Translations under genes and position numbers: made by a program
In this document: piece by piece, positions 2,800-49,962 of the stretch
Numbering within the stretch: position 1 is the first letter of the stretch
Layout: every line of letters starts with the position of its first letter
The notes under the pieces: generated by a model
What the model was told of the DNA's origin: nothing
Seen by the model: the letters and a program-made list of their open reading frames with translations, nothing else
Databases searched by the model: none
NCBI GenBank assembly: GCA_964551475.1
Contig: CAZKCI010000064.1
Location: 19,643 to 83,642 of the forward strand
Direction: 5' to 3'
From: an uncultured bacterium
GTDB taxonomy: Bacteria > Auribacterota > Erginobacteria > Erginobacterales > CAZKCI01
Length of the DNA stretch: 64,000 nt

Positions 2800-3212
2800 A
2801 CGGAAGGTAAATAGGCTAGGGTTAGGTGAATGGTTTGGTCATTGGGCAAGGGTTAGGTGCGGCCGGGTTCCACCGTTTACCTCACCTATTGACCAGACCA
2901 ATAACCTTGCCCTAACCCATTGACCGATTGGTTGACGGGTTAGGGTAAGGAAGTGGGTCTGGTAAATGGGTTAGGGTCAAGTGCGGCCTGGAGAACCGCC
3001 GGCCGGGCTGCACCATTGACCTTACCCATCGACCAGACCAATAACCTTGCCCTAACCCATTGACCGATTGGTTGACGGGTTAGGGTAAGGAAGTGGGTCT
3101 GGTAAATGGGTTAGGGTCAAGTGCGGCCTGGAGAACCGCCAGCCAGGCTGCACCATCGACCTTACCCATCGACCAGACCAATATCCTAACCCTAACCCAT
3201 CAACCCCATCCG
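2800..3212 (+). repeat. Three tandem copies of a ~125-bp MITE-like element with terminal inverted repeats (GGGTTAGGGTAAGGAAGTGGGTCTGGTAAATGGGTTAGGG … CCTTACCCATCGACCAGACCAATAACCTTGCCCTAACCC), joined by GATTGGTTGAC linkers
   Basis: Two near-identical ~150-bp direct repeats (approx 2893-3050 and 3043-3190), each carrying internal inverted arms, plus a more diverged copy at 2805-2935. The same element recurs at 6 other intergenic loci in the window. Confidence 0.8.
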
Positions 3213-3223
3213 CACCGCAACAA

Positions 3224-4213
3224 ATGAAGGAACAATCTCAAGATATTCTTCTGCAAGTCCGCGACCTCCGGAAGAGCTTCCCCCTTCGCCGGGGGCTCTT
3301 CTCCCGCCCGGCGGGGTCCGTCCGGGCGGTGGACGGGGTGAGCTTCGAGATCCCCCGCGGGACCACGCTCGGCCTGGTCGGCGAGACCGGCTGCGGGAAG
3401 ACCACGCTCGGCCGCCTCATCCTCCGTCTCCTCCCCGCCGACGGGGGAGAGGTTTTCTTCCGGGGCTTGAACGTGCTCGCCCTTCCCCCCGCCCGGCTGC
3501 GGGAGCTGCGCCAGGAGATGCAGATCGTTTTCCAGGATCCTTTCGGATCGCTGAACCCCCGGATGAGAGTCGGCGCGATCGTGGGGGAGGGGCTCCGAAT
3601 CTTTCGGCGGGGGACCGGACGGGAGATCGAGACGGAGACGGCCCGCCTCCTGGAGCGGGTGGGCCTCAACGCCTCCGCGGCGAAACTCTATCCCCACGAG
3701 TTTTCGGGCGGCCAGCGCCAGCGGATCGGGATCGCCCGGGCGATCGCGCTCCGGCCCGCGTTCATCGTCTGCGACGAGCCGGTCTCTTCGCTGGACGTCT
3801 CCATCCAGGCCCAGATCCTGAACCTTCTCGCCGACTTGCAGGAGGAGATGGGGCTCGCCTATCTCTTCATCGCCCATGATCTCCGCGTGGTCGAGCACAT
3901 CTCCCATCGGGTGGCGGTGATGTACCGGGGGCGGCTCATGGAGACGGCGAAACGGGAGGATCTTTACGCCGATCCCCGCCACCCCTACACCCGTCTCCTT
4001 CTGGATTCCATCCCCGATCTCGATCCCGCCGCCCCCCGCCGCGATCCGCCCGCCGTTGCGCCCGAAGAGGCGGCTGGCGACGGCTGCCCGTTCTTCCCGC
4101 GCTGCGGGGAGAGGAGCGAGGAATGCGGTACGGTAGTTCCGGAGCTTCAGGAGATTTTTCCCGGGCATCAGGTGGCGTGTATAAGGCAGGGAAGGCTGAA
4201 GACCGAAGGCTGA
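3224..4213 (+). CDS. ABC transporter ATP-binding protein, OppF/DppF family
   Basis: Walker A GETGCGKT, signature FSGGQRQR, Walker B FIVCDEPVSSLD and a C-terminal Cys-containing extension (CPFFPRC). Confidence 0.85.
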   Translation: MKEQSQDILLQVRDLRKSFPLRRGLFSRPAGSVRAVDGVSFEIPRGTTLGLVGETGCGKTTLGRLILRLLPADGGEVFFRGLNVLALPPARLRELRQEMQIVFQDPFGSLNPRMRVGAIVGEGLRIFRRGTGREIETETARLLERVGLNASAAKLYPHEFSGGQRQRIGIARAIALRPAFIVCDEPVSSLDVSIQAQILNLLADLQEEMGLAYLFIAHDLRVVEHISHRVAVMYRGRLMETAKREDLYADPRHPYTRLLLDSIPDLDPAAPRRDPPAVAPEEAAGDGCPFFPRCGERSEECGTVVPELQEIFPGHQVACIRQGRLKTEG

Positions 4214-4370
4214 AGGCTGAAGGCCGAAGACTGAAGGCTGAAGGCTGAAGGAAAAACCGCCTGAACCCTGAACCCTGAACCCTGAACCCTGAACCCTGAA
4301 CCCTGAACCCTGAACCCCGTAGCCAGCCACTTGACAATTGATAAATGACCAATGACGAATGACCAATGAT
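4189..4370. repeat. Three consecutive short tandem arrays: (GCTGAAGG)x~7 overlapping the oppF 3' end, (CCTGAAC)x8, and (AATGACC)x3
   Basis: Read directly: …gaaggctgaagaccgaaggctgaaggctgaaggccgaagactgaaggctgaaggctgaagg…cctgaaccctgaaccctgaaccctgaaccctgaaccctgaaccctgaacccc…aatgaccaatgacgaatgaccaatga. A TTGACA hexamer sits at ~4331. Confidence 0.85.
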
Positions 4371-9831: not shown

Positions 9832-10266
9832 ATGAGCCAGGGGGAGAACCGGCCGGGCGAAATCCATGACGAGCCGGCGGCCAGCCGTCTGGGCTACCGG
9901 GTTCTCAAGGCGGTCCTGATCATCCTGGTCGCGGGCGGCGTGGTCTTCCTGTGGAAGTTCGCCGCCCGGCGCACCCCCCCCGACCTGGCCCCCCACCGGG
10001 GACAGCTCCGGCTGCTGGAGGAGTCCTACGCCCTCCGCCAGGAGCGGATCCGCGCCGACTTTGAGGAGAAGATCCGCGCCGCGCCCAACGAGGTCCTTTC
10101 CGTCAAGTACCAGCAGGAGGAGAACCAGGAACTGAATCGGGCCGAGGACCTCTATTTCGCCGACAAGGAAGCGATCGCCCGGGGCGATTACCGCTGTCTC
10201 CCGGCCCACTGGGGGGAGGAGATCAAGCGGATGCCGAAATCAACAACTGGAACAACTGACCGTTAA
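9832..10266 (+). CDS. Hypothetical small membrane-anchored protein (144 aa)
   Basis: ORF with one TM helix ([18 protein letters not shown]) and a charged C-terminal region. It is co-directional and close to hppA. No recognisable motif. Confidence 0.45.
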
Positions 10267-10398
10267 TGGGTAAGGGTGAGGAAGTGGGTCTGGTCAATGG
10301 GTTGGGGTTAAGTGCAGCCCGGCGAATCGCAAGACAGGCCAGACCATTAACCTTACCCATCTTCCAGACCAATAACCTCACCCTTACCTATTGACCAT
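10267..10398 (+). repeat. MITE-like palindromic element, single copy, beginning 1 bp after the upstream stop codon
   Basis: tGGGTAAGGGTGAGGAAGTGGGTCTGGTCAATGGGTTGGGGTTAAGTGCAGCCC…AGACCATTAACCTTACCCATCTTCCAGACCAATAACCTCACCCTTACC. The arms are reverse-complementary. Confidence 0.8.
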
Positions 10399-10407
10399 CG
10401 GTTAACA

Positions 10408-10776
10408 ATGGAACCAAGTAACAAAAAGATCCTGGTTATCGACGACGACGACAAGATCGGCGCTTTTCTCAAGCTCTATTTCAGCAAGAAGGGGTTCGCG
10501 GTGGGGGTCGTCCAGAAGGCTGAGGAAGCGGAGCGGGAGATCGAGAAGACAAGGCCCGATCTGATCTTCCTCGACTACCGGATGTCCCCGATCACCGGGA
10601 AGGACATCCTGGAGCGGATGAAGATCCGCGGCGACCGCACGCCGGTGGTGATGATGTCGGCGTACCGCCGCCGCGACGGGGACATGGAGATGGTCAGGCT
10701 GGGGGCGCTCGCCTATCTCCCCAAGCCTTTCGACTTCGCCGAGATCGACCGCATCCTCCGCCGGGTCTTCCCCTGA
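10408..10776 (+). CDS. Single-domain response regulator (CheY-like receiver)
   Basis: ILVIDDDD…; phospho-acceptor context DLIFLDYRM; conserved T/S (VVMMSAY) and K (YLPKPF) positions. No output domain. Confidence 0.85.
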   Translation: MEPSNKKILVIDDDDKIGAFLKLYFSKKGFAVGVVQKAEEAEREIEKTRPDLIFLDYRMSPITGKDILERMKIRGDRTPVVMMSAYRRRDGDMEMVRLGALAYLPKPFDFAEIDRILRRVFP

Positions 10777-10780
10777 AACG

Positions 10781-11020
10781 ATTGGTCAATGGGTTAGGGT
10801 TAGGAAGTGGGTCTGGTGGATGGGTTAGGGCAAGGTGTCGCCAAGCCAGGTTGCACCATTAACTTTACCCATATACCAGACCAATATCCTTACCCTTACC
10901 CATTAACCGATTGGGTGACGGGTTAGGGTTAGGTCAACGGTTTGGTCCTTGGGCTGGGGTTAGGTCGGTTGCACCATTGACCTTGCCCATTTACCGGACC
11001 AATAACCTTGCCCTGATCCA
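10781..11020 (+). repeat. Two tandem MITE-like elements between the receiver and histidine kinase genes
   Basis: Copy 1 ~10785-10908 (GGGTTAGGGTTAGGAAGTGGGTCTGGTGGATGGGTTAGGG…TACCAGACCAATATCCTTACCCTTACCC). The linker is gattgggtgac. Copy 2 ~10920-11020. Confidence 0.8.
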
Positions 11021-13805: not shown

Positions 13806-14040
13806 AGAAAATGGGTTAGGGTTAGGAAGTGGGTCTGGTAAATGGGTTAGGGTTAAGTGCGGCCTGACAAAACCGCCAGCCGGGCTACACCATTGACCGA
13901 TTGGTTAATGGGTTGTTGATGGGTTGGGGTTAGGAAGTGGGTCTGGTAAATGGGTTAGGGCAAGGTGTCGCCAAGCCAGGCTGCACCATTAACTTTACCC
14001 ATTTACCAGACCAATATCCTTACCCTTACCCATTGACTAG
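13806..14040 (+). repeat. MITE-like elements (one truncated copy plus one full copy) directly after the HEAT-lipoprotein stop
   Basis: aTGGGTTAGGGTTAGGAAGTGGGTCTGGTAAATGGGTTAGGGTTAAGTGCGGCC…; second copy …GGGTTGGGGTTAGGAAGTGGGTCTGGTAAATGGGTTAGGGCAAGG…TTTACCCATTTACCAGACCAATATCCTTACCCTTACCC. Confidence 0.8.
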
Positions 14041-17565: not shown

Positions 17566-17692
17566 GAAAGAAAGGCTGAGGGCTGAAGGAAAAGCGGCGC
17601 GCATCTTGTGTCCGGCCTCTCTTATCGTGTATTGTATGGCCGGCAAGCCGGGCTGCGTTTGTCCAGGCTTTGTCCATATCGTCCATATCGAC
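17566..17692. repeat. Short tandem repeats in the secA upstream region: GCTGAGG/GCTGAAGG and (GTCCATATC)x2-GACCATGTC
   Basis: …aaaggctgagggctgaaggaaaag… and …tttgtccatatcgtccatatcgaccatgtcaa… These are the same CTGAAGG and CGTCCAT repeat families seen elsewhere in the window. Confidence 0.7.
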
Positions 17693-17693
17693 C

Positions 17694-20600
17694 ATGTCAA
17701 TACTGACCAAAATTTTTGGCACCAAGTTCGACCGCGACCGCAAGAAACTCCAGCCCCTGGTCGACGAGATCAACCGCCGGGAGGCGGAGTACCGCAACCT
17801 CTCCGAAGAGGCCTTCCGGTCCCTCTCCGCCGGCTTCCGGGAACGGCTCGCCCGGAAGATCGCCGAGCCGACCGCCGCCCTCGCCTCCGTCCGCTCCCGC
17901 CTGGCCTCGGAGCTTACGACCGGCGAGGAGGATGAGCTCAAGGCCGAGGAGAAGGACCTGATCAAGACCATCCGGGCGGCGGAGAAAGCGGAGCTGGAGG
18001 TCCTCCTCCCCGATGCCTTCGCCGCGGTGAAGAACGCCTGCCGGAGGCTCCTCAAGCAGACCTGGGATGTCTGCGGCCAGTCCCTGACCTGGGAGATGGT
18101 CCCCTTCGACGTCCAGATCATCGGGGGGATCGCCCTCCACCAGGGGCGGATCGCCGAGATGGCCACCGGCGAAGGCAAGACGCTGGTCGCCACCTTCCCC
18201 CTCTACCTGAACGCGCTCGCCGGCCACGGCGTCCACCTGGTCACCGTGAACGACTACCTGGCCCGGCGCGACCGGGAGTGGATGGGGCGGATCTTTGAAA
18301 GCCTGGGACTCAGCGTGGGCTGCATCCAGGTGGGGATGGAGCCCGCCGAGCGGTGCGCCGCCTACGCCTGCGACATCACCTACGGGACGAACAACGAGTT
18401 CGGTTTCGACTACCTCCGCGACAACATGGCGGTCCGCCCCGAAGACCAGGTGCAGCGGATCTACCTTCACCACAAGGCGGACACCGACGAGATCAAGCGC
18501 GGCCACTACTACGCGATCATCGACGAGGCGGATTCGATCCTGATCGACGAGGCGCGGACCCCGCTGATCATCTCCGGACCGGTGGCCCGGGACGAGTCCA
18601 CCCATCTCGTCTACAAGCGGGTGATGCCGCTGATGAAGGACCTCTCCCGGCGGCAGGCGCTCCTCTGCGCGCGGCTTTTGGCGGAGGGGAAGGCGGCCTG
18701 GGAGAAGGACGACGAGGAGACGGCCGCCCGCCGCTTCTACCAGGTGAAGAAAGGCCAGCCCAAGAACAAGCAGCTGATGAGCCTGATCGAGGACCCCGCC
18801 GCCCGGAGGCTGATCGAGCGGGCCGAGGTCGAGCTCGACGCCGTCTCTTCCCAGGCCCCCCGGGCCGAGGAGGGGCGGGCGATGCGCGAGGAGCTCTTCT
18901 ACACGCTCAACGAGCGCGCCCACGAGATCAACATCACCGACAAGGGCCATCTCGCCCTCTCTCCCCAGAACCCCGACGAGTACGTGGTCGAGAGCCAGCA
19001 GCAGGACTGGCTGAGCGAGCATCAGAAGGTGGAGTCCGACCCCTTGCTGAGCCGGGAGGAGAAGGTCCTCCGCCACAACGAGATCGTCCGGGAGGAGCAG
19101 GCCTTCAACCAGAAGATCGACAAGATCCACGCCGCCTTCACCTCCCTGCGCGCGCTCGACCTCTTCGAGAAGGACGTCGAGTACGTGATCCAGGACAACA
19201 AGGTGGTGATCGTGGACGAGTTCACCGGCCGCTTGATGCCCGGCCGCCGCTACAGCGACGGGCTCCACCAGGCCCTGGAGGCGAAGGAGGGGGTCTGGAT
19301 CGAGCATGAGACGCAGACGCTGGCCACGGTCACCATCCAGAACTACTTCCGGATGTACGAGAAGCTCGCCGGGATGACCGGGACGGCCGAGACCGAGGCG
19401 GTGGAGTTCGACAAGATCTACCACCTCGACGTGATGGTCATCCCCACCAACGAGCCGGTCCGGCGGACGAACTACCACGACCGGATCTACAAGACCAAGA
19501 ACGAGAAGTACCAGGCGGTGATCGCCGAGATCGCCGCCGGCTTCGAGAAGCAGCGGCCGGTGCTGGTGGGGACGGTCTCGGTCGACACCTCCGAGGTCCT
19601 GAGCCGCATGCTGAAGCGGCGCAAGATCCCCCACCAGGTCCTGAACGCCCGCTACCATCAGCAGGAGGCGGAGATCGTGACCCGGGCCGGCCAGGCCGGC
19701 GCGGTCACCATCGCCACCAACATGGCCGGGCGGGGGACCGACATCAAGCTCGGGGCGGGCGTGGTCCGCGCGGAGTGCCTGGAGACGCGGGGGCGGAACC
19801 GCCGCGCCGCCGGGGAGGCCTTCGCGGGCGAGCCCTGGTGCTGCGTCACCTGCCGCGTCTACGACAAATGCCGCCGGGGGTCGAAGGCGCTCTGCGGGAA
19901 GCCGGCCCAGATGTTCGCCTGCCGAAGCGAGGTCCCCTGCGGACTGCACATCGTCGGGACCGAACGGCACGAGGCGCGGCGGATCGACCGCCAGCTCCGC
20001 GGCCGCTGCGCCCGCCAGGGGGACCCCGGCGCCTCGCGCTTCTACCTCTCGCTCGAGGACGACCTGATGCGCCTTTTCGGCTCCGACCGGATCGCCGGGA
20101 TCATGGGGAAGATGGGGATCGAGGAGGGGGAGGAGATGACCCATCCGCTCCTCACCCGGGCGATCGAGACCGCCCAGAAACGGGTGGAGGGGCACAACTT
20201 CTCCATCCGCGAGCACATCCTCAAATACGACGACGTGATGAACAAGCAGCGGGAGGAGATCTACGCCTTCCGCACCAGCATCATCGACAGCCTGAACCCG
20301 CGCCGGGGGATCCTGGGGGTCATCGAGGAGGCGGTCCGGGAAAAGGTGGAGGAGTTCTGCCCGGAGAAGACGCCTCCGGAGGAGTGGAAGTGGTCGCGCC
20401 TCTCCCTCTGGCTCCAGTCGACCTTTCTCATCTCGCTCCCCGAGAAGTCCCCCCCGGAAGGGATCGCCGCCGCGGGGCTCACCGAGAAGATCATGGGACA
20501 GGTCTCCCGCTTCTACGAGCTCAAGGAGGTCTACGAGGGGAAGGAGAACATGCGGCGGCTCGAGAAGCTGGTGGTCTTGTCCGTGATCGACCGCCTCTGG

Positions 20601-21050
20601 CTCGAGCATCTGGCCAACATGGACGACCTCCGCCAGGGCATCTCTCTGAGGGCCTACGGCCAGAGGGACCCGCTGGTCGACTACAAGCAGGAGAGCTACG
20701 AGATGTTCACCAACATGGAGGCGAATCTCAAGCAGGAGGTGGCGGGGGCGATTTTCCGCGCTTCCATCCGCCCCCCGCCGCTTACCCGCGCTCCGGAGCG
20801 CTTCATCCACGAGGAAGTGGCGGCCTTCTCCGGAAGGCTTCCGGCCAAACCGCAGGCCCGGCCGCGCCCCGCGCCCGCCGCGGCCATGGCCGGAGGGGAT
20901 CCCGGCGAACTCTTCCCGGGCGCCCCTCCCGCGGAGTCCGCTCCCTCCGCCCCCGTTACCTTCAAGCGGGAGGCGGCCAAAACCGGGCCCAACGACCCGT
21001 GTCCCTGCGGTTCGGGGAAGAAGTTCAAGAAGTGCTGCGGGAAACAGTAA
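17694..21050 (+). CDS. secA: Preprotein translocase ATPase SecA
   Basis: ATG 17694 ([17 protein letters not shown]… aligns to the canonical SecA N-terminus). DEAD motor motifs ([77 protein letters not shown]) and a C-terminal zinc finger [14 protein letters not shown]. It contains an unusual Cys-rich insertion in NBD2. Confidence 0.95.
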   Translation: [1118 protein letters not shown]

Positions 21051-21051
21051 A

Positions 21052-21215
21052 AAACATTGGAGTACTGGAGTATTGGAGTAGTGGAGTGATGATAATCATG
21101 GAGTATTGGAGTAGTGGAGTGATGGAGTAATGGGGCAGACTGCCGTGCGGCTTTTTTCCAATACTCCAATACTCCATCACTCCATTACTCCATTGCTCCA
21201 TCACTCCAGTACTCA
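21052..21215 (+). repeat. Large inverted repeat built from 8-mer tandem units (GGAGTANT)x~9 … (ANTACTCC)x~7, with an embedded intrinsic-terminator-like centre (GGCAGACTGCC gtgcggc TTTTTT)
   Basis: Left arm ~21058-21132, centre 21133-21157, right arm 21158-21214. The arms are reverse complements at unit level. Confidence 0.85.
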
Positions 21216-21249
21216 TTCTCCCTTCTGTCGATCGGCTTCTCTCTCCGGC

Positions 21250-22785
21250 TTGCTCGCGCTCCTCTCCGGCGTTCTTCTCACCCTCCCGTTCCTGAACTTC
21301 GCCCTCGCGCCCTTGGCCTGGTTCTCTCTCGTCCCCCTGATCGTCTCCGCCGCCTATCGCCCCGTCCGGACGGGGGCGGTGATGGGTCTCGTCGCCGGAT
21401 GCGTTTTCGGCTTCGTCGGCATGCACTGGCTGAGGGCGGTGACGGGGATCGGCTATTCCATACTCGCCCTCTACCTCGCCCTCTACTGGGCGGCCTGGTC
21501 CGCCTTCGTCTCTTTCGTCTCGCGCCGCCGCCCCGGCTGTCTCTGGTGGGCCGCGCCCGCCTCTTTCGCCGCCCTGGAGTTCCTCCGCTCCCATCTCTTC
21601 ACCGGTTTTCCCTGGAACCTTCTCGGGGTGAGCCAGGCTCTCAACCCGCCGCTCATCCAGGTCGCGTCCTGGACCGGCGTCTACGGCGTCTCCTTCCTCG
21701 TCGTCCTCGCCAACGCCGCCCTCGCCTGTTTCCTCCTGGGTGGGAAGATCGCTCCGGCCGGCCGTGGGCGCCGCCTGCTTCCCTTGGCCGTCACGCTGGC
21801 CGTCCTCGCCGCGGTCTGGCTCTATGGAGAGAATGAGCTTAGGGAGGCGGACGCTCTCCCTCCGTCGCCTTCGTTCAACCTCTGCCTTGTCCAGGGGGGG
21901 ATCAGCCAGGATTTGAAGTGGGATCCCGCTCTCGCCCCCCATCATCTTGAGACCTATCTCCGCCTGACCCGGAAGGCCCTCCCCACTCATCCCGATCTTG
22001 TCCTCTGGCCGGAGTCCGCCGTTCCCTATTACATCGAAGAGCAGGCGGAGGTGAGGAAAAGGATCGCCGAGGTCTGCGCGGAGGGGAAAACTTTTCTTCT
22101 CTTCGGCGGCGACACACGGGAAAGGGCTTCCACCGTGGGCGACACCGGAGGTGAGACGGTTTCTCGCTGGCGCTATTTCAACAGCGCCTACCTCTTCGAC
22201 GGGGCAGGGGAGATGGCCGGGCGCTATGACAAGGTCCATCTCGTCCCCTTCGGCGAATACGTCCCCCTGCGCCGCTTCCTCCCCTTTGTCCGGAGGATGG
22301 TCCCCTGGGAGGACGATTTTTCGGCCGGTGAGGGCCTTGCCCTGCTCCCGGTCGGAGCCGGAAAGTCCATGGCCGTCCTGATCTGCTACGAGGACATCTT
22401 CCCGGGTCTGGTCCGGGATTTCTGCCGGAAGGGCCCGTACCTGCTCGCCAACGTCACCAACGACGCCTGGTACGGGCGGACCAGCGCGCCCTTCCAGCAC
22501 GCCTATGCCGCGCTCTTCAGGGCGGTGGAGAACCGCGTCTACCTGGCGCGGGCCACCAACACCGGCTACTCCTGTGTCGTCGATCCCTGGGGGAGGATCG
22601 TCTCCGAGGTCAGGGACGGGGGAGGGGAGATGCTTTTCATTCCCGGCGCCGCCACCGCCGCCGCCGCTCTCCGAAGGGCCGGGAGTTTTTACACCCGCCA
22701 TGGCGATCTGTTCGCCTGGCTCTGCGTCGGCCTGTCTCTTATCGCGACCGTGTTCTCCGTGATCCGGCAGTCGAAGCAGGCTTGA
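21250..22785 (+). CDS. lnt: Apolipoprotein N-acyltransferase
   Basis: N-terminal multi-TM region plus a CN-hydrolase domain (…LVLWPESAVPYY…, YDKVHLVPFGEYVP, LICYEDIFP, NVTNDAWYG). The start is uncertain: the track ORF begins at ATG 21130 inside the upstream hairpin, while the in-frame TTG 21250 gives a typical Lnt N-terminus (LLALLSGVLLTLPF…). Confidence 0.8.
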   Translation: MLALLSGVLLTLPFLNFALAPLAWFSLVPLIVSAAYRPVRTGAVMGLVAGCVFGFVGMHWLRAVTGIGYSILALYLALYWAAWSAFVSFVSRRRPGCLWWAAPASFAALEFLRSHLFTGFPWNLLGVSQALNPPLIQVASWTGVYGVSFLVVLANAALACFLLGGKIAPAGRGRRLLPLAVTLAVLAAVWLYGENELREADALPPSPSFNLCLVQGGISQDLKWDPALAPHHLETYLRLTRKALPTHPDLVLWPESAVPYYIEEQAEVRKRIAEVCAEGKTFLLFGGDTRERASTVGDTGGETVSRWRYFNSAYLFDGAGEMAGRYDKVHLVPFGEYVPLRRFLPFVRRMVPWEDDFSAGEGLALLPVGAGKSMAVLICYEDIFPGLVRDFCRKGPYLLANVTNDAWYGRTSAPFQHAYAALFRAVENRVYLARATNTGYSCVVDPWGRIVSEVRDGGGEMLFIPGAATAAAALRRAGSFYTRHGDLFAWLCVGLSLIATVFSVIRQSKQA

Positions 22786-22792
22786 TGTTTGT

Positions 22793-22845
22793 AGGCCCGC
22801 TCTGAGAGCGGGCGTTTTAATCGCCGCTTCACAGAAGCGGCCTAC
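22793..22845 (+). terminator. Compound terminator after lnt: GCCCGCTC-tgag-AGCGGGC followed by gtttta, then a second hairpin GCCGCTTC-acag-AAGCGGC, all nested in GTAGGCC…GGCCTAC
   Basis: Read directly from gtaggcccgctctgagagcgggcgttttaatcgccgcttcacagaagcggcctacagg. Confidence 0.5.
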
Positions 22846-22851
22846 AGGAGC

Positions 22852-24720
22852 TTGTCCAGCTACCGTCTCCGGCTCACGAATAAGATGATGAATGTTCGCG
22901 ATCATCTCTCGAGCCGCGCCTTTCGGGGGACGGCGCTCCTGCTTCTCGCCCTCCTCGCCGCGCTCGCCTATTCCTATCCCATCTTCCGCGACTTCGGCAA
23001 CTGGGGGATCCAGGACTGGGACCAGCACCTCTTCTACCACGCCGTCCCCCGCCACACGATTCTCCACTACCATGAGTTCCCGCTCTGGAACCCCTGGTAC
23101 TGCGGGGGGGCGCCTCTTCTCGCCAACCCGCAGTCCCGTTTCCTCTCCCCGACCTACCTCTGCGTCCTCCTCCTGGGCGCGGTGCGGGGGATCAAGGTCG
23201 AGATCCTCCTCCACCTGGTCGTCGGCCTGGTCGGGGCTTACCGCCTCGCCCGCTCCTTCCGGATGAGCCGCCCCGCCTCCGCCCTCACCGCTTCCCTCTT
23301 CGTTCTCAACAGCTCCTTCGCCCTCAACCTGACCGTGGGGATGACCTGGTTCCTCTCCGCCGCCTACATCCCCTGGGCTTTCCATTTTTATCTCAAAGCG
23401 ATGCGGGACCTGCGCTGGTCGGCCGCGAGCGGTGCCTGTCTGGCTATGGTTTTCCTGGGCGGGGGAATCTATCCCGTCGTGATCGCCGTTCTTTTTCTCT
23501 TCGTCTATGCACTCTTCGCCGTTCTCCTGGAGAAAAGGCGCTTCTCCCGCGCCGCGGCGGCCATTTTTCTCTCCATCGCTTTCGCCTTGTCGATCAGCGC
23601 CATCAAAGCCATCCCCGCCTGGATGTATCTGAAAGGACACCCCCGCCTGATCGACGACTACTCCGGCTACAGCCTCTCCTCGCTCGTCTTCTCCCTCTTC
23701 AGCCGCGATCAGCAACTGGGGGCGATCGAGAGCGCCCTCTCCACGTCCCGGACGGGATTTTTCGGCGGCGTCTCCTGGTTTATGGACGAGAACGGAATGT
23801 ACGTCGGGATCGTCGCCGCCCTCCTCTGCCTTCTCGGGATGATCTCCCGCTTCCGCCGCCGCCCGGCTCTCGCCCTCTGCCTGGTCCTCTCCCTCTGGCT
23901 CGCCTTCGGCTCCCGGGCGCCGTTGAGCCTTTGGAATCTCATCCATGAACTTCCGGTTTTCGCCTCGATGCGTGTGGCCCAGCGCTACCGGATCGTTTTT
24001 CTCCTCGCCTTCTCGCTCTTCGCCGGTTTCGGTCTCGACTCCCTGCTCGACCGTCTCCGCCGCCTCCGCCCGCGATTCCCCTCCGATCCCCTCGCCGCCG
24101 CCGCGGTCCTGGTGATCTCGGCCGACCTGATCCTGGTCTCCTCGCGGGTTTTCCGGGAAGCCTTCCCGATCCCTCCGCTCCCGGTTGGCCCTCCGGGCGC
24201 TTTTCGCCAGGTGGAATCATTCTCGTCTTACGGAAGAATCGGCTGGGTGGCGTACGCTTCGAATCCCCGGCACATATCCTGGGGCGGACTCTACCCGGCT
24301 TTTTTGAGCAACCTGGGAGTGATCAAGGCCTACGAGTCGGCCGAGGTGCCCAGGATGGCGATCCCGTCGGAGTGGCCGAGCTACCGGGGGGAGATATTCC
24401 TGGAGGGCACGGAAGGGAGCGCCACGCTCCAGCGTTGGACGCCCAACGCGCTGACGATCGAAACCGAGGCCGATCGTCCGGGCTATCTCATCGTCAACCA
24501 GAACTACGATCCCGGCTGGAAAATCGCCGGCGGCGGGACGGTGGAGAAGAGGAGGGGACTGATTGCGGTAAAAATACCTTTCCGCCGGGCCTCCGTGGCA
24601 TTATATTATCAGCCCCCCGGTTTTCGCCTCGGACTGGCCGTCTCGGCCGCCGGCTGCCTGCTGGCGGCCGCTGTTCTGCGCCGGACGATGCGTCTCCGGG
24701 GGAGGCAGGAAGAAAAATGA
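22852..24720 (+). CDS. Large polytopic membrane protein (~620 aa), candidate GT-C-fold glycosyltransferase (YfhO/ArnT-like)
   Basis: More than 10 predicted TM helices. A conserved-looking periplasmic loop (HEFPLWNPWYCGGAPLLANPQS). Family assignment is tentative. Confidence 0.45.
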   Translation: MSSYRLRLTNKMMNVRDHLSSRAFRGTALLLLALLAALAYSYPIFRDFGNWGIQDWDQHLFYHAVPRHTILHYHEFPLWNPWYCGGAPLLANPQSRFLSPTYLCVLLLGAVRGIKVEILLHLVVGLVGAYRLARSFRMSRPASALTASLFVLNSSFALNLTVGMTWFLSAAYIPWAFHFYLKAMRDLRWSAASGACLAMVFLGGGIYPVVIAVLFLFVYALFAVLLEKRRFSRAAAAIFLSIAFALSISAIKAIPAWMYLKGHPRLIDDYSGYSLSSLVFSLFSRDQQLGAIESALSTSRTGFFGGVSWFMDENGMYVGIVAALLCLLGMISRFRRRPALALCLVLSLWLAFGSRAPLSLWNLIHELPVFASMRVAQRYRIVFLLAFSLFAGFGLDSLLDRLRRLRPRFPSDPLAAAAVLVISADLILVSSRVFREAFPIPPLPVGPPGAFRQVESFSSYGRIGWVAYASNPRHISWGGLYPAFLSNLGVIKAYESAEVPRMAIPSEWPSYRGEIFLEGTEGSATLQRWTPNALTIETEADRPGYLIVNQNYDPGWKIAGGGTVEKRRGLIAVKIPFRRASVALYYQPPGFRLGLAVSAAGCLLAAAVLRRTMRLRGRQEEK

Positions 24721-25851
24721 ACGTGGAGATCACCGAAAGACACAAGACCCTCGCCTCCCGCTTCGCGGAGATGCGGGGGCATCTTTGACCTGGACGGCAA
24801 GCGGACCCGCCTGAAGGAACTGGAAACGGAGATGTCCCGCCCCGGTTTCTGGGACGAGGGGGAAAAGACCCAGAAGGCAATCGCCGAGCTCAAGGGGATC
24901 AAGGAGGTGCTCGATCCCTGGTCCGAACTGGAGAAAGATCTCGGGGAGCTTCCCGAACTTCTCGCTCTGGCCGCCGAAGACGCCAGCCTGGAGGGGGAGA
25001 TCGTCTCCGAGGTCGACCGGATCGGGGAGCGCCTGGACGCGCTCGAGCTTTCCGCGATGCTCTCCCGCCCGGAGGACGCCCAGGACGCGGTCTTCAGCCT
25101 CCAGGCCGGAGCGGGGGGGACCGAGTCCTGCGACTGGACCGAGATGCTCTGGCGGATGTACAGCCGCTGGTGCGAGAGGCGCGGCTACGACGTCGAGGTG
25201 GTGAACATCGCGCCGGGGGAAGAGGCGGGGATCCGGAATCTCACCGCCCTGATCAAGGGGCGTTTCGCCTACGGTTATCTCCAGGCCGAGCGGGGAGTCC
25301 ACCGGCTGGTGCGGATCTCCCCCTTCGATTCCAACCATCGCCGCCACACCTCCTTCGCGTCGGTCGACGTGGCCCCCGACGTGGAGGAGGAGATCGTGAT
25401 CGAGATCGAGGAGAAGGATCTGCGGATCGACACCTTCCGCGCCGGGGGCCATGGGGGCCAGCACGTCAACATGACCGACTCGGCCGTCCGGATCACCCAC
25501 CTGCCGACCGGGATCGTGGTCCAGTGCCAGAACGAGCGCAGCCAGCACAAGAATCGGGCGACGGCGATGAAGGTCCTCAAAGCCCGCCTCTACCAGCGGG
25601 AGCAGGACGAGCTCCGGAGGAAGGCGGTCAAGCATCACGAGGCGCAGAAGGAGATCGGCTTCGGTTCCCAGATCCGCTCCTACGTCTTTCATCCCTACAC
25701 CATGGCCAAGGATCACCGGACCGGCGTCACTACCGGCGACGTGAACCGGGTCATGGACGGGGACATCGACCGCTACATCAACGCGTTTTTAAAGCAGCAG
25801 ACGGGGAGGGGTTCTCCCGGGCCGGCTGCCGACGACGACATGGAGGTGTAA
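24717..25851 (+). CDS. prfB: Peptide chain release factor 2, expressed via programmed +1 ribosomal frameshift (join 24717..24785, 24787..25851)
   Basis: Frame-0 ORF MNVEITERHKTLASRFAEMRGHL ends at the in-frame UGA in gggggCAT CTT TGA C. The +1 frame continues DLDGKRTRLKELETEMSRPGFWDE… and carries the SPF (…RISPFDSNHRRHTSF…) and GGQ (…RAGGHGGQHVNMT…) motifs. Confidence 0.9.
24775..24789 (+). promoter_or_regulatory. RF2 autoregulatory +1 frameshift site: internal SD-like GGGGG, 3 nt, then CUU UGA C
   Basis: Matches the canonical prfB frameshift cassette (SD-like element, slippery CUU, weak UGA-C stop context). Confidence 0.85.
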
Positions 25852-26214: not shown

Positions 26215-26220
26215 GCAGGT

Positions 26221-26288
26221 AAGGGTTAGGAAGTGGGTTTGGTCTATGGGTTACCAGACCCACTTCCTAACCCTGACCCATCGACCAG
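26221..26288 (+). repeat. Minimal MITE-like hairpin (20-bp arms GGTTAGGAAGTGGGTTTGGT / ACCAGACCCACTTCCTAACC) filling the RRM-lysS intergenic gap
   Basis: Near-perfect inverted repeat with a 9-nt loop. It has the same arm sequence as the larger elements and ends 6 bp before the lysS ATG. Confidence 0.8.
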
Positions 26289-29045: not shown

Positions 29046-29275
29046 TCAATGGGTTAGGGTTAGGAAGTGGGTCTGGTAAATAGGTTGGGGTTAGGTGTGT
29101 CATGGCAAAACGACTGACGGGCTACACCATTGACCGATTGGTTGACGGGTTAGGGTTAGGAAGTGGGTCTGGTAAATGGGTTGGGGTTAGGTGTGTCATG
29201 GCAAAACGACTGACGGGCTACACCATCTACCTTACCCATCGACCAAACCCACTTCCTTACCCTCACCCATTAACC
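29046..29275 (+). repeat. MITE-like elements (two copies, first lacking a right arm) between lolC/E and lolD
   Basis: …caatGGGTTAGGGTTAGGAAGTGGGTCTGGTAAATAGGTTGGGGTTAGGTGTG…; the second copy ends …ATCTACCTTACCCATCGACCAAACCCACTTCCTTACCCTCACCC. The internal spurious ORFs (MAKRLTGYTI…) are repeat-encoded. Confidence 0.8.
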
Positions 29276-30066: not shown

Positions 30067-30972
30067 ATGCATATCTACATCAACGGCAAGTATTTCGACA
30101 AGGACGAGGCGAAGGTCTCGGTCTATGACCACGGGCTTCTCTACGGGGACGGCGTCTTCGAGGGAATCCGGGTCTACAACAACCGCGTCTTCCGCCTGGG
30201 GGAGCACATCCAGCGCCTCTACGATTCGGCCAAAGGGATCTGCCTGACCATCCCGCTCAGCCCGGAGGAGATGTCCCAGGCGGTCATCGAAACCGTTCGT
30301 CGCAACGGCCTGCCCGATGCCTACATCCGCCTGGTCGTCACCCGCGGCGCCGGCTGCCTGGGGCTCAACCCCTTCACCTGCTCCCATCCCCAGGTCATCA
30401 TCATCGTCGACAAGATCGCCCTCTATCCCCAGGAGCTGTACGACAAGGGGTTGAATGTCGTCACCGTGGCCACGCACCGCAACTACCCGGAGTCGCTCAA
30501 CCCCCGGATCAAGTCGCTCAACTACCTGAACAACATCCTGGCCAAGATCGAGGCGATCAACGCCGGCGTGGAAGAGGCGATCATGCTCAACTCCTACGGC
30601 CTGGTCTCGGAGTGCACCGGCGACAACATCTTCGCCTACCGCAAGGGCGTTCTCCTCACCCCCTCGATCAGCATGGGCGTGCTGGAGGGGATCACCCGCG
30701 ACGCCGTCATCCAGATCGCCCGGGAAAAGAAGATCGTCGTCAAGCCCATGGTCATGACCCGCTACGATTTCTACATCGCCGACGAGGTCTTCGTGACCGG
30801 GAGCGCGGCCGAGATCGTCCCGGTGGTCAAGGTCGACGGGCGGGTGATCGGGGAGGGCGTCCCCGGCCCGGTCACCCGGTCCCTGATGGAGGCCTACCAT
30901 CACCTGACCCGGAGCGAAGGGGAGCCGGTGACCCGTGGGGGGAAACCGGGTAAAAAGAAACTGATTGGTTGA
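30067..30972 (+). CDS. ilvE: Branched-chain amino acid aminotransferase (PLP fold type IV)
   Basis: ATG 30067 after a GAGGT RBS (MHIYINGKYFDKDEAKVSVYDHGLLYGDGVFEGIRVY…). Conserved E…K motifs are present. The final codons and TGA stop lie within the downstream repeat. Confidence 0.85.
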   Translation: MHIYINGKYFDKDEAKVSVYDHGLLYGDGVFEGIRVYNNRVFRLGEHIQRLYDSAKGICLTIPLSPEEMSQAVIETVRRNGLPDAYIRLVVTRGAGCLGLNPFTCSHPQVIIIVDKIALYPQELYDKGLNVVTVATHRNYPESLNPRIKSLNYLNNILAKIEAINAGVEEAIMLNSYGLVSECTGDNIFAYRKGVLLTPSISMGVLEGITRDAVIQIAREKKIVVKPMVMTRYDFYIADEVFVTGSAAEIVPVVKVDGRVIGEGVPGPVTRSLMEAYHHLTRSEGEPVTRGGKPGKKKLIG

Positions 30973-31245
30973 CGGGTTAGGGTTAGGAAGTGGGTCTGGT
31001 AAATGGGTTAGGGTTAAGTGCGGCATGGCGAAACCGCCAGCCGTGCCACACCATCTACCTTACCCATCGACCAAACCCACTTCCTTACCCTCACCCATTG
31101 ACCGATTGGTTGACGGGTTAGGGTTAGGAAGTGGGTCTGGTAAATGGGTTAGGGTTAAGTTCGGCATGGCAAAACGGCTGACGGGCTACACCATTAACCT
31201 TACCCATTTACCAGACCATTATCCTGACCTTTACCTATAGACCAT
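30962..31245 (+). repeat. Two tandem MITE-like elements between ilvE and mcsA; the element/linker supplies the ilvE stop codon
   Basis: ctgattggtTGAcGGGTTAGGGTTAGGAAGTGGGTCTGGTAAATGGGTTAGGGTTAAGTGCGGC…ATCTACCTTACCCATCGACCAAACCCACTTCCTTACCCTCACCC cattgaccgattggttgac GGGTTAGGG… (second copy). Confidence 0.85.
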
Positions 31246-37398: not shown

Positions 37399-37547
37399 GG
37401 TTCAACGGATCAAGGGTTCAGCGGTTCAGAGGTTCACGGTTCAACGGTTAGATAACACAACCGCTGAACCGCTGAACCGTGAACCGTTGAACCGTGAACC
37501 GCTGAACCGCTGAACCGTGAACCGCTGAACCGTTGAACCCTGAACCC
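37399..37547 (+). repeat. ~150-nt inverted repeat made of 8-9-mer microsatellite units: (GGTTCANNG)x6 - loop agataacacaa - (CNNTGAACC)x~11, followed by a T-rich tract
   Basis: It begins 1 bp after the TPR-gene stop and ends ~20 nt before the proS ATG. The arms were read directly. Confidence 0.85.
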
Positions 37548-48861: not shown

Positions 48862-48997
48862 CGGGTTCAGCGGTTCACGGTTCAGCGGTTCAGCGGTTCA
48901 ACGGTTGGAAAAATAACCGTGAACCGCTGAACCGTGAACCGCTGAACCTCTGAACCTCTGAACCGTTGAACCGTGAACCGTTGAACCTTTGAACCCT
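48862..48997 (+). repeat. ~135-nt inverted repeat of 8-9-mer units: (GGTTCANCG)x5 - loop aaaaataa - (CNNTGAACC)x~9
   Basis: It starts 2 bp after the truB stop and ends ~18 nt before the ribF ATG. It has the same architecture as 37399-37547. Confidence 0.85.
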
Positions 48998-49014: not shown

Positions 49015-49962
49015 ATGAAGGTTTATAACTCCATTACTCCTCGTTCTTCGCGGTCTCCGCTGGTTATCGGAATCGGAACCTTCGACGGCGTCCATCGCGG
49101 GCACCGGGCGGTCCTCTCCGCCGTCCGCCGACTGGCCGGACAGTCCGGAGTTTCCGGCGTGATCGCCTTCCGCGTCCCCCCGCGGCATGTGGTCGGGGCG
49201 GGCGGAGAGGAGTGCCTGACCACGCCGGCCCAGCGCCGGGAACTGTTCCAGAAAACGGGCGTGGACGTCTGCTGGCTCCTCGACTTCGACCGCCGTTTTT
49301 CGCGTCTTTCCGCGGACGATTTCGTGCGCCGCGAGCTCGCCCAGAAGCTCAGGATCTCCGGCGTCTGCGTGGGGGAGGGATTCCGTTTCGGGCGGGGGAG
49401 GGGGGGGACGGTCGCTCTCCTCCGCCGTCTGGGCGCGGAACTCGGGTTCCGTGTCCGGGAGGTAAGGGCGGTGCGCGCGGGCGGCCGCCGTGTCTCCAGC
49501 ACGCGCATCCGCCGTCTTCTCGCCCGGGGGGACGTCCGTTCCGCCGCCCGCTGCCTGGGGAGAGACTACGTTCTCACCGGGAAGGTCGTGGGCGGGCGCG
49601 GCCAGGGGCGTTCTCTCGGCTATCCCACGGCCAACTTCATCCCCGAGCAGATGCTTCCCCGTCCCGGCGTCTACGCCGCCCGGATCGAGTCCGGTGGCCT
49701 CCGCCGGAGCGGGATGTTCTATCTTGGCCGCCGTCCGACACTGCCCGGGCGCCGGCCGGGAGAGGTCGTAGCCGAAGCCCATCTCTTCGATTTCGCCGGA
49801 AACCTCTACGGGAGGCGGATAAAAGTCTTCTTGAAAAGGCGCCTGCGAAGGGATATAAAGTTCAAAACCATAACGGCCCTCCTCGGGCAGATCCGGCGCG
49901 ATGAGACGCGCGCCCGCTTCTCCGCAAAGAGACTGAGCCGCCGCAAAGGAGATAACGCATGA
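49015..49962 (+). CDS. ribF: Bifunctional riboflavin kinase / FMN adenylyltransferase
   Basis: IGTFDGVHRGH adenylyltransferase motif and a C-terminal riboflavin kinase domain (…GRGQGRSLGYPTANF…). Confidence 0.85.
   Translation: MKVYNSITPRSSRSPLVIGIGTFDGVHRGHRAVLSAVRRLAGQSGVSGVIAFRVPPRHVVGAGGEECLTTPAQRRELFQKTGVDVCWLLDFDRRFSRLSADDFVRRELAQKLRISGVCVGEGFRFGRGRGGTVALLRRLGAELGFRVREVRAVRAGGRRVSSTRIRRLLARGDVRSAARCLGRDYVLTGKVVGGRGQGRSLGYPTANFIPEQMLPRPGVYAARIESGGLRRSGMFYLGRRPTLPGRRPGEVVAEAHLFDFAGNLYGRRIKVFLKRRLRRDIKFKTITALLGQIRRDETRARFSAKRLSRRKGDNA

Follow-up and report, generated by a model that had tools for sequence, protein, structure and literature searches.

What fills the spacer between secA and lnt in an uncultured bacterium of the Auribacterota, and where does lnt begin if its longest reading frame runs straight through that spacer? 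We analysed a 64,000-nucleotide stretch of contig CAZKCI010000064.1 (assembly GCA_964551475.1; hereafter the window), in which secA and lnt are co-directional on the + strand and 160 bases of the spacer between them make up a hairpin built of 8-base tandem repeats. Two arrays of the octamer TGGAGTRN are oriented face to face in it. We read the secA–lnt element, with moderate confidence, as a non-coding, fast-evolving intercistronic short-tandem-repeat element, comparable to the short tandemly repeated repetitive (STRR) sequences of cyanobacteria.

Architecture and folding of the secA–lnt element

The left (5′) arm (21059..21131) comprises eight GGAGTRNT units and a degenerate 9-mer, GATAATCAT (21091-21099), in the order GGAGTACT GGAGTATT GGAGTAGT GGAGTGAT GATAATCAT GGAGTATT GGAGTAGT GGAGTGAT GGAGTAAT. 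A 28-nt centre or loop, GGGGCAGACTGCCGTGCGGCTTTTTTCC (21132..21159), follows on the + strand with a 4-bp mini-hairpin (21134-21144) and a run of six T (T6; 21152-21157). The right (3′) arm (21160..21215) consists of seven inverted ANYACTCC units, namely AATACTCC (twice), ATCACTCC, ATTACTCC, ATTGCTCC, ATCACTCC and, last, AGTACTCA. The original prediction had counted about nine left and about seven inverted units; the right-arm count stands, and the left arm has eight clean units plus the degenerate one. Base counts are G29 and C2 in the left arm and G2 and C22 in the right. Within the left arm, the 24-mer GGAGTATTGGAGTAGTGGAGTGAT occurs twice with exact identity (21067-21090 and 21100-21123, spanning 21067..21123), which points to recent expansion by blocks. 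The element starts 8 nt after the TAA stop codon of secA (21048-21050), and its right arm ends 34 nt before TTG 21250. The secA gene itself spans 17694..21050 on the + strand in the JGI call (the longest open reading frame (ORF) starts at 17670), with Pfam matches SecA_DEAD, SecA_PP_bind, SecA_SW and SEC-C on the identical JGI contig.

A pattern of two consecutive units matched the window 12 times, against 0.03 expected from shuffles, and 11 of the 12 matches lie in the element. Tandem Repeats Finder (TRF) detected both arrays at period 8, with 9.4 and 7.2 copies. Folded as RNA, the + strand reaches -94.5 kcal/mol (z = -10.0) with 65 base pairs and the - strand -86 kcal/mol (z = -10.4); for neither strand did any of 200 shuffles fold as low. 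Sequence, TRF, pattern counts and fold thus all uphold the octamer-repeat hairpin first proposed for this spacer, including the proposed check, RNA folding of the 21050-21220 region, which returned a strong hairpin (z = -10.0). The arms pair in several registers with 83-89% complementarity, and the stem has a mismatch about every 8 bp. At gathering thresholds, Rfam gave 0 matches in the whole window; at permissive E-values it gave sub-threshold generic long-hairpin models only, such as plant microRNA precursors (43 bits against a threshold of 73). No promoter emerged when the surroundings of the locus were scanned for promoters and terminators.

The same site in relatives

The nearest named relatives of the window Lnt are Candidatus (Ca.) Aureabacteria/Auribacterota and other metagenome-assembled genomes (MAGs) of the Planctomycetes–Verrucomicrobia–Chlamydiae (PVC) group. 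In three close relatives (L001, L002 and L127, with Lnt 77-84% identical), the secA stop is separated from the lnt ATG by 36 nt without an array, and this 36-nt spacer holds a terminator, AAAATCGCC-GGGG-GCGATTTTATTT (-11.9 kcal/mol, z = -3.7). The element in this lineage sits where close relatives have the 36-nt spacer, the small intrinsic terminator and the lnt ATG. L004 (Ca. Aureabacteria, Lnt 72% identical) carries a different GGAGT-type array at the secA–lnt site, with left units GGAGTAAT and GTGAGTGT, a right arm of CATACTCA/CACACTCA and a centre that has no T-run; the secA stop TAA of L004 lies inside the array, and its lnt ATG is 17 nt past it. The next spacer downstream, between lnt and yfhO, presents the reverse of the secA–lnt situation: the window has a plain terminator there (22795-22818, -16.6 kcal/mol, z = -4.3), and relatives have palindromic octamer arrays, CGCGAATA/TATTCGCG in L001 (2700-2900) and CACGGATT/AATCCGTG in L002 (4633-4770).

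Other pairs of arrays are consistent with rapid change. The orthologous prfB–RRM arrays differ in unit number and sequence. One genome of Desulfobacteraceae Eth-SRB2 contains the same GGAGT hairpin twice (L013 334-480 and L023 4067-4205), with identical flanks, an 82-nt centre that differs at one base, and a left arm of four versus three units; this pair directly exemplifies how a unit is gained or lost. Such comparisons show fast turnover of the arrays, whose units are gained, lost and duplicated in blocks, and we infer that over evolutionary time the arrays are interchangeable with simple terminator hairpins. The history of gain and loss at the secA–lnt site rests on five genomes, because a metagenome scan for further Lnt relatives added one locus, L127. 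The DNA alignment of the secA–lnt junction is short and gapped and does not fix the boundaries of the insertion; that the last units of the right arm resemble the ancestral start region is no more than a hint.

The start of lnt

With a TTG start, lnt (apolipoprotein N-acyltransferase) occupies 21250..22785 on the + strand and encodes 511 aa, identical to JGI protein P0001 and to the JGI gene call. Its product matches Pfam LNT_N and CN_hydrolase and the Lnt chains in the PDB (E = 3e-43). The ORF list instead begins the gene at an ATG (21130..21132, + strand) at the junction of left arm and centre; as the original prediction said, this 551-aa ORF runs through the repeat, crossing the right arm, and its frame includes TTG 21250. 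Besides ATG 21130, canonical starts in the lnt frame 5′ of 21250 are limited to GTG 21145 and TTG 21193 (in unit ATTGCTCC), and all three lie within the hairpin. The left arm has stop codons in all three + frames and the right arm none in any + frame, so an upstream extension of the ORF is automatic. Among the array matches listed from other genomes, which are described below, ACTCC arrays inside ORFs are in the open orientation 22 times and in the other 4 times, mostly at ORF 5′ ends.

Two observations make TTG 21250 the likeliest start: the RNA around it lacks structure, and the Pfam LNT_N domain is matched in full. A fold of 21216-21290 was weaker than 194 of 200 shuffles (z = +1.67), and residue 46 of the long ORF corresponds to LNT_N profile position 1, so the TTG form carries the entire domain. 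The lnt genes of relatives likewise lack a Shine–Dalgarno (SD) sequence. Between the right arm and TTG 21250 lies an unstructured, pyrimidine-rich stretch (21216..21249, + strand) that in the lnt frame translates as ...SPFCRSASLSG and represents either a 5′ leader or a remnant of an N-terminal coding region. An N-terminal alignment had been named as a check on the idea of a repeat-encoded extension, and a conserved extension in orthologues as the sign of genuine coding; the repeat-encoded peptide was absent from all 40 of the closest Lnt orthologues. The repeat is therefore most likely non-coding, and lnt probably starts at TTG 21250.

Several features of that start tell against it. Of the 41 aligned sequences, only P0009 has a shorter N-terminus than the TTG form, which starts with M-LALLSG and has no positive charge ahead of the first transmembrane segment. 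The lead of E. coli Lnt, LIERQRIR, aligns to FCRSASLSG, upstream of TTG 21250, and the 12-14 codons 5′ of the TTG keep the frame and can be loosely aligned to the N-termini of relatives. To call the TTG form a conventional Lnt N-terminus, as was done at first, was therefore too strong, and an upstream start (TTG 21193 or ATG 21130) is still conceivable because the N-terminus from TTG 21250 is so short, although we give any start upstream of 21250 a rather low probability. As to the alternative originally posed, a TTG start or an acquired extension, it can be said that the repeat is not a conserved coding extension and that TTG 21250 is the more probable start codon.

Translation of part of the repeat would mean that Lnt starts at TTG 21193, GTG 21145 or ATG 21130 and carries a tail of 19-40 residues encoded by the right arm (...LHHSSTHSPFCRSASLSG-), the array having overwritten the ancestral ATG and provided a substitute start. 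We regard this history as a tentative possibility. It would account for the short, uncharged TTG N-terminus, where E. coli Lnt and most orthologues have 8-17 residues, and only three canonical in-frame starts are available to it. Positions 21208-21249 share their frame with the codons at the N-termini of relatives (TCC AG... CAT ... TGY), apart from an apparent +6-nt indel, and the odd unit ATTGCTCC matches ATTGCTCG immediately 5′ of the relatives' ATG. A parallel is provided by ribF, which has two ACTCC-type units as its codons 4-9, no alternative start and its Pfam domain elsewhere. All three candidate starts are, however, buried in the -94.5 kcal/mol hairpin, the extension is missing from every orthologue aligned (the 40 closest), and LNT_N is complete from the TTG. 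Moreover, the clade tolerates a very short N-terminus without charge, as L004 and P0009 demonstrate, and the in-frame similarity covers about 14 codons of a pyrimidine-rich stretch in which stop codons are improbable anyway.

In the window, the product of ribF (49015-49040) starts MKVYNSITP, and codons 4-9 are the octamer units ATAACTCC ATTACTCC; the Pfam FAD_syn match starts at residue 13, so that the units lie outside it, and a GGTTCAGC hairpin is directly upstream. These units are likely a remnant of an array that is now translated. Array sequence can thus become coding, as the first codons of ribF hold two ACTCC-type units.

Transcription termination

The small terminator of the relatives raises the question of whether the element took over its task, with either the central mini-hairpin and T6 or the entire hairpin stopping RNA polymerase after secA. 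Two facts speak for this: the classic terminator of relatives is at exactly the same place, and the T6 run of the centre reads as T on the + (gene) strand only. The fold of the centre by itself, however, reaches -7.8 kcal/mol (z = -0.07), a value equalled or bettered by 83 of 200 shuffles; its T6 begins 7 nt past the 4-bp stem, and the consensus terminator scan did not report it. The large hairpin has no U-tract downstream of it, the array of L004 has neither a counterpart of this centre nor a T-run, and the G-rich 5′ arm has a polarity opposite to that of the terminators seen here. Nor, among the matches listed from other genomes, are sense T-runs enriched over A-runs in the 29 co-directional GGAGT hairpins (7 versus 13 in loops, 4 versus 5 in flanks).

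The terminator-like centre that had been predicted was therefore not borne out, and we think it unlikely that the element serves as the secA terminator. An intrinsic (Rho-independent) terminator has a stable GC-rich stem with an immediate U-tract, and the element lacks this combination. We conclude that termination is not the function of the GGAGT hairpin family and that here it can be at most a weak, idiosyncratic contribution.

Short-unit arrays elsewhere in the window

A search for other arrays, also proposed at the outset, found 17 arrays of period 7-8 in the window, as well as the GGAGT arrays in other genomes. Fourteen or fifteen of the 17 are in intergenic DNA, which makes up 11.7% of the window, and 11 of the 33 spacers of at least 60 nt carry an array. 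The unit types include GGAGTAAT, GGTTCAGC, CCTGAAC, GAAGGCT, AATGACC, CTACCCT and ATTTCGG, and window genes are almost all on the + strand. Two further palindromic arrays, GGTTCAGC/GGTTCAC followed by GCTGAACC/GTGAACC (37399-37546 and 48864-48995), each fill a spacer of co-directional genes, with the G-rich arm first in both. Because short-unit arrays populate spacers throughout the window, the secA–lnt element is one instance of a genome-wide class and is not a device specific to these two genes.

Direct arrays occur as well. One spacer (4191-4369) holds three heptamer arrays back to back, all of them direct: GAAGGCT ×8.7, CCTGAAC ×8.3 (100% perfect) and AATGACC ×3.7. A separate family resembling bacterial interspersed mosaic elements (BIMEs) has an arm of about 46 nt, GGTTGACGGGTTAGGGTTAGGAAGTGGGTCTGGTAAATGGGTTAGG, in alternating orientation, the linker being either GATT, 4 nt long, or some 44 nt of GC-rich sequence. 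In the window the family is present in at least seven spacers (2800-3205, 10254-10403, 10770-10922, 13860-14033, 26220-26260, 29051-29275 and 30959-31244), and it recurs nearly unchanged in L002 (8085-8220), whose Lnt is 77% identical.

Elsewhere in the window, prfB, which encodes release factor 2 (RF2), has a programmed +1 frameshift site (24717-24832), CTT TGA C at 24783-24789 with GGGGG upstream, also found in L001 and L002. Its ATG (24717) and the stop codon of the YfhO-like gene overlap as ATGA; the JGI call starts prfB at 24832 and omits the first 23 codons.

GGAGT arrays across phyla and the order of their arms

Species-representative genomes were scanned for three consecutive GGAGTRNT units, which gave at least 120 loci (L007-L126), all in MAGs; a further set of loci comes from viral contigs (L128-L157). 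The counts given in this section for GGAGT arrays are those among the matches listed. The arrays span more than 15 phylum-level groups, among them Desulfobacterota, Verrucomicrobiota, Planctomycetota, Bacteroidota, Cyanobacteria (including Calothrix MAGs), Nitrospirota, Chlamydiota, Armatimonadota and Gemmatimonadota. They usually have three or four units per arm and sharp ends with T...GG. Of 33 classifiable hairpins, 29 lie between co-directional ORFs, and they start about 15 nt (median) past the upstream stop.

The order of the arms is strikingly constant. A GGAGT array was followed by ACTCC within 120 nt at 45 loci, and the opposite order was found at 1; this asymmetry is a real property, because the order of an inverted repeat reads alike on both strands. 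Palindromic pairs of arrays built from other units numbered 33; their 5′ arm had more G than C in 28 and more C than G in 3, and it was purine-rich in 28 versus 5. G-first order may reflect tolerance beside gene ends, with a stop-rich, SD-like arm after the stop codon and a stop-free, G-poor arm before the start codon. Alternatively, it might prevent a stretch rich in C and poor in G from lying exposed until its partner has been transcribed; it could also be the trace of the mechanism that generates the arrays.

GGAGT arrays also occur without a partner, some of them 10-19 units long, and these solo arrays showed no strand bias relative to transcription (19 versus 16). In viral contigs, GGAGT formed 30 stretches, against 5 and 14 for two scrambled control octamers; GGAGT is thus enriched there, yet other units form arrays too. 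Other heptamers common to several genomes (AAACCTG, AAATCCG, AACCCTG and others) looked above chance, but base composition was uncontrolled and we do not rely on them. One contig stands apart: the first 8000 positions of L096 (CBDHHR010000034.1, binned as Metamycoplasmataceae) are nearly all ACTCC-type octamers, with more than 1000 units in blocks. This 8-kb stretch looks like a satellite, possibly of a mis-binned organism.

The loops of the GGAGT hairpins are unrelated in sequence between loci, even within one genome (L007 versus L056), which bears on the idea that a miniature mobile element of the miniature inverted-repeat transposable element (MITE) or REPIN type was inserted between secA and lnt. 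The inverted-repeat architecture, the orthologous site that is empty in three relatives and the 4-nt CATT on either flank of the element would agree with an insertion. In the window there is nevertheless no second copy with the same centre, a clean empty site could not be reconstructed, a 4-nt flank match is weak evidence, and both the 24-nt duplication within the element and the drift of its units are what growth in place would produce. We consider insertion of such an element highly improbable. As regards MITEs in particular, the inverted arrays come with no more than the 4-nt flank match and with no internal sequence common within or between genomes.

A simpler account is that the arrays are neutral or selfish, slippage-prone DNA that seeds and expands in any spacer, the palindromic ones persisting merely because they fold away and spare the neighbouring genes. 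Presence or absence of the element among close relatives, unconserved unit content at orthologous sites, the unrelated loops and the many different units in one genome all agree with this; the arms lack compensatory pairing, and in viral contigs the scrambled control octamers make arrays as well (5 and 14 stretches, compared with 30 for GGAGT). Against it stand the constant TGGAGT core with two free positions, which recurs across more than 15 phylum-level groups, the strict order of the arms (45 to 1 for GGAGT, 28 versus 3 for other units) and the avoidance of complementarity at the variable positions. Taken together, these three argue for some constraint, selective or mechanistic, beyond random slippage, and we regard pure neutrality as possible and somewhat doubtful.

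The arrays might also be binding platforms for a dedicated protein. An oligomeric binder would read TGGAGT cores spaced by 8 nt, on either RNA or single-stranded DNA, and the inverted arm would mask them. The conserved core with two free positions, the long solo arrays, the two- to sixfold excess of GGAGT over scrambled controls and the avoided complementarity would suit such a reader. No candidate protein was identified, however, many other unit sequences behave alike, and the solo arrays have no strand bias, so that we think a binding platform quite unlikely. A broader proposal, which we rate as improbable, is that TGGAGT-core arrays and the G-rich-arm-first rule for any unit together represent an undescribed cross-phylum system rather than plain replication slippage plus tolerance. 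It might take the form of a dedicated repeat-binding factor that reads cores 8 nt apart, or of a dedicated generator, for example fold-back self-priming of the G-rich tandem-repeat strand.

Relation to known repeats

The closest known case is the cyanobacterial STRR hairpin, and the secA–lnt element is an STRR-like intercistronic repeat hairpin. In the hupS–hupL spacer of cyanobacteria, 7-bp STRR repeats form a hairpin for which roles in transcript stability or translational coupling have been suggested (PMC2670836); STRR function is unknown, and the proposed roles are transcript stability, translational coupling and pausing (PMC2670836, PMC2408588). Like STRRs, the arrays described here consist of short units in tandem, lie in non-coding DNA at many places in a genome and comprise several unit types. 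Their inverted copies are predicted to fold within the spacer, here with z = -10 between the co-directional and possibly co-transcribed secA and lnt. As in STRRs and in the 'long simple sequence repeats', defined by units of 5-11 nt (Mrazek 2007, as cited in PMC4679880), a 5-11-nt unit is repeated head to tail beyond chance (12 matches versus 0.03 expected). By the original STRR definition, however, the unit is a heptanucleotide and the host a cyanobacterium, whereas the secA–lnt unit is 8 nt with a 6-nt constant core and the host an uncultivated PVC-group MAG. Unlike STRRs, the TGGAGT core spans more than 15 phylum-level groups (among the matches listed), and in the literature we found, the strict G-rich-first order and the non-complementarity of the arms at variable positions are undescribed for STRRs. 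The GGAGT array strings were not found in the literature searched, where matches were unrelated primers and the like.

Heptamer repeats of TAACTGA are known from Beggiatoaceae, Cyanobacteria and Bacteroidetes (MacGregor 2015; PMC4679880). They occur upstream of starts in one orientation, with 169 direct sets and 1 indirect, and their mechanism is unknown, polymerase slippage having been proposed (PMC4679880). GGAGT arrays resemble them as intergenic 7-8-nt units near start codons in scattered phyla, including Calothrix, Saprospiraceae and Cytophagia; unlike them, and unlike the 'long simple sequence repeats', which are direct repeats too, the GGAGT arrays have as their hallmark an inverted pair that fills an intercistronic spacer.

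The secA–lnt palindrome also shares its position, a spacer of co-directional genes, with repetitive extragenic palindromic (REP) sequences and BIMEs. REP, BIME and REPIN sequences are imperfect palindromes between co-directional genes or at operon ends in enterobacteria and pseudomonads. REP sequences act as RNA-level exonuclease barriers and modulate the upstream gene when near its stop codon; their action at the RNA level was reportedly established by Newbury in 1987 and Liang in 2015. They are single palindromes of 20-40 nt, conserved over the full sequence and spread by REP-associated tyrosine transposases (RAYTs). GGAGT hairpins, in contrast, share the octamer core alone and vary in arm length by whole units. 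We do not assign them to the REP/BIME/REPIN group, as centres and unit orders differ at every locus listed and the window has no second copy; the better REP analogue in the window is the BIME-like family GGGTTAGG....

Mycobacterial interspersed repetitive units (MIRUs) of Mycobacterium tuberculosis are tandem repeats in the intercistronic spacers of operons that touch the flanking stop and start codons; their units are 40-100 bp direct repeats, often with small ORFs, and are not known to form hairpins. The secA–lnt element is like MIRUs a set of tandem repeats in an intercistronic spacer and, unlike them, has 8-nt inverted units that form a hairpin.

A possible role for the hairpin

On the reading that we favour, of a non-coding STRR-like element, the arms of the putative secA–lnt transcript would zip up into a hairpin of some 65 bp, for which several registers are available. 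This would fold the 160-nt insert away and keep the secA stop and the lnt start region close. By analogy with REP and STRR sequences, the hairpin may block 3′-to-5′ exonucleases and so stabilize the secA portion of the message; it is also a possible target of RNase III and a weak attenuator that sets the secA:lnt ratio, and it is near enough to the stop codon that it might influence the termination of secA translation. Translation of lnt would most likely start at TTG 21250 independently of an SD sequence, within a leader that is pyrimidine-rich and unstructured, and the long ORF across the right arm would be a by-product of that arm being free of stop codons.

Beyond the short N-terminus discussed above, several points weigh against this reading. 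The test for covariation presupposed arms that mirror each other, and the opposite was observed: at the variable unit positions, mirrored units form Watson–Crick pairs in 29%, compared with 39% for random pairs of units, and native hairpins are less stable than unit-shuffled versions (z = +3.0 and +4.4). Covariation support for a selected structure is therefore absent; the arms are not kept complementary, and their pairing derives from the constant 6-nt core alone. The contig is identical to JGI metagenome contigs of two samples, and no variation in copy number was seen at the secA–lnt locus. The functional steps of the hairpin model are all inference, and relatives manage without the element, which would suit a neutral or selfish insert equally well.

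Implications

At the secA–lnt locus, a repeat hairpin stands in place of a canonical terminator and of the ancestral start codon of lnt, an essential gene of lipoprotein maturation, which makes the locus a natural experiment in the remodelling of operon spacers and gene starts. It also carries a warning for annotation: 'longest ORF' models wrongly extend genes across stop-free arms, here by 40 residues on Lnt and with the same pattern at 22 other arrays, and in MAGs such extensions yield 'hypothetical proteins' with ...ITPLLHHS... repeats. The strict arm order (45 to 1 among the matches listed, and 28 to 3 for other units) is an unexplained, countable regularity for which any mechanism proposed for STRR-type repeats must account. 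What STRR-type repeats do is a 35-year-old question, and the cross-phylum core and the order of the arms are worth following in pursuit of it.

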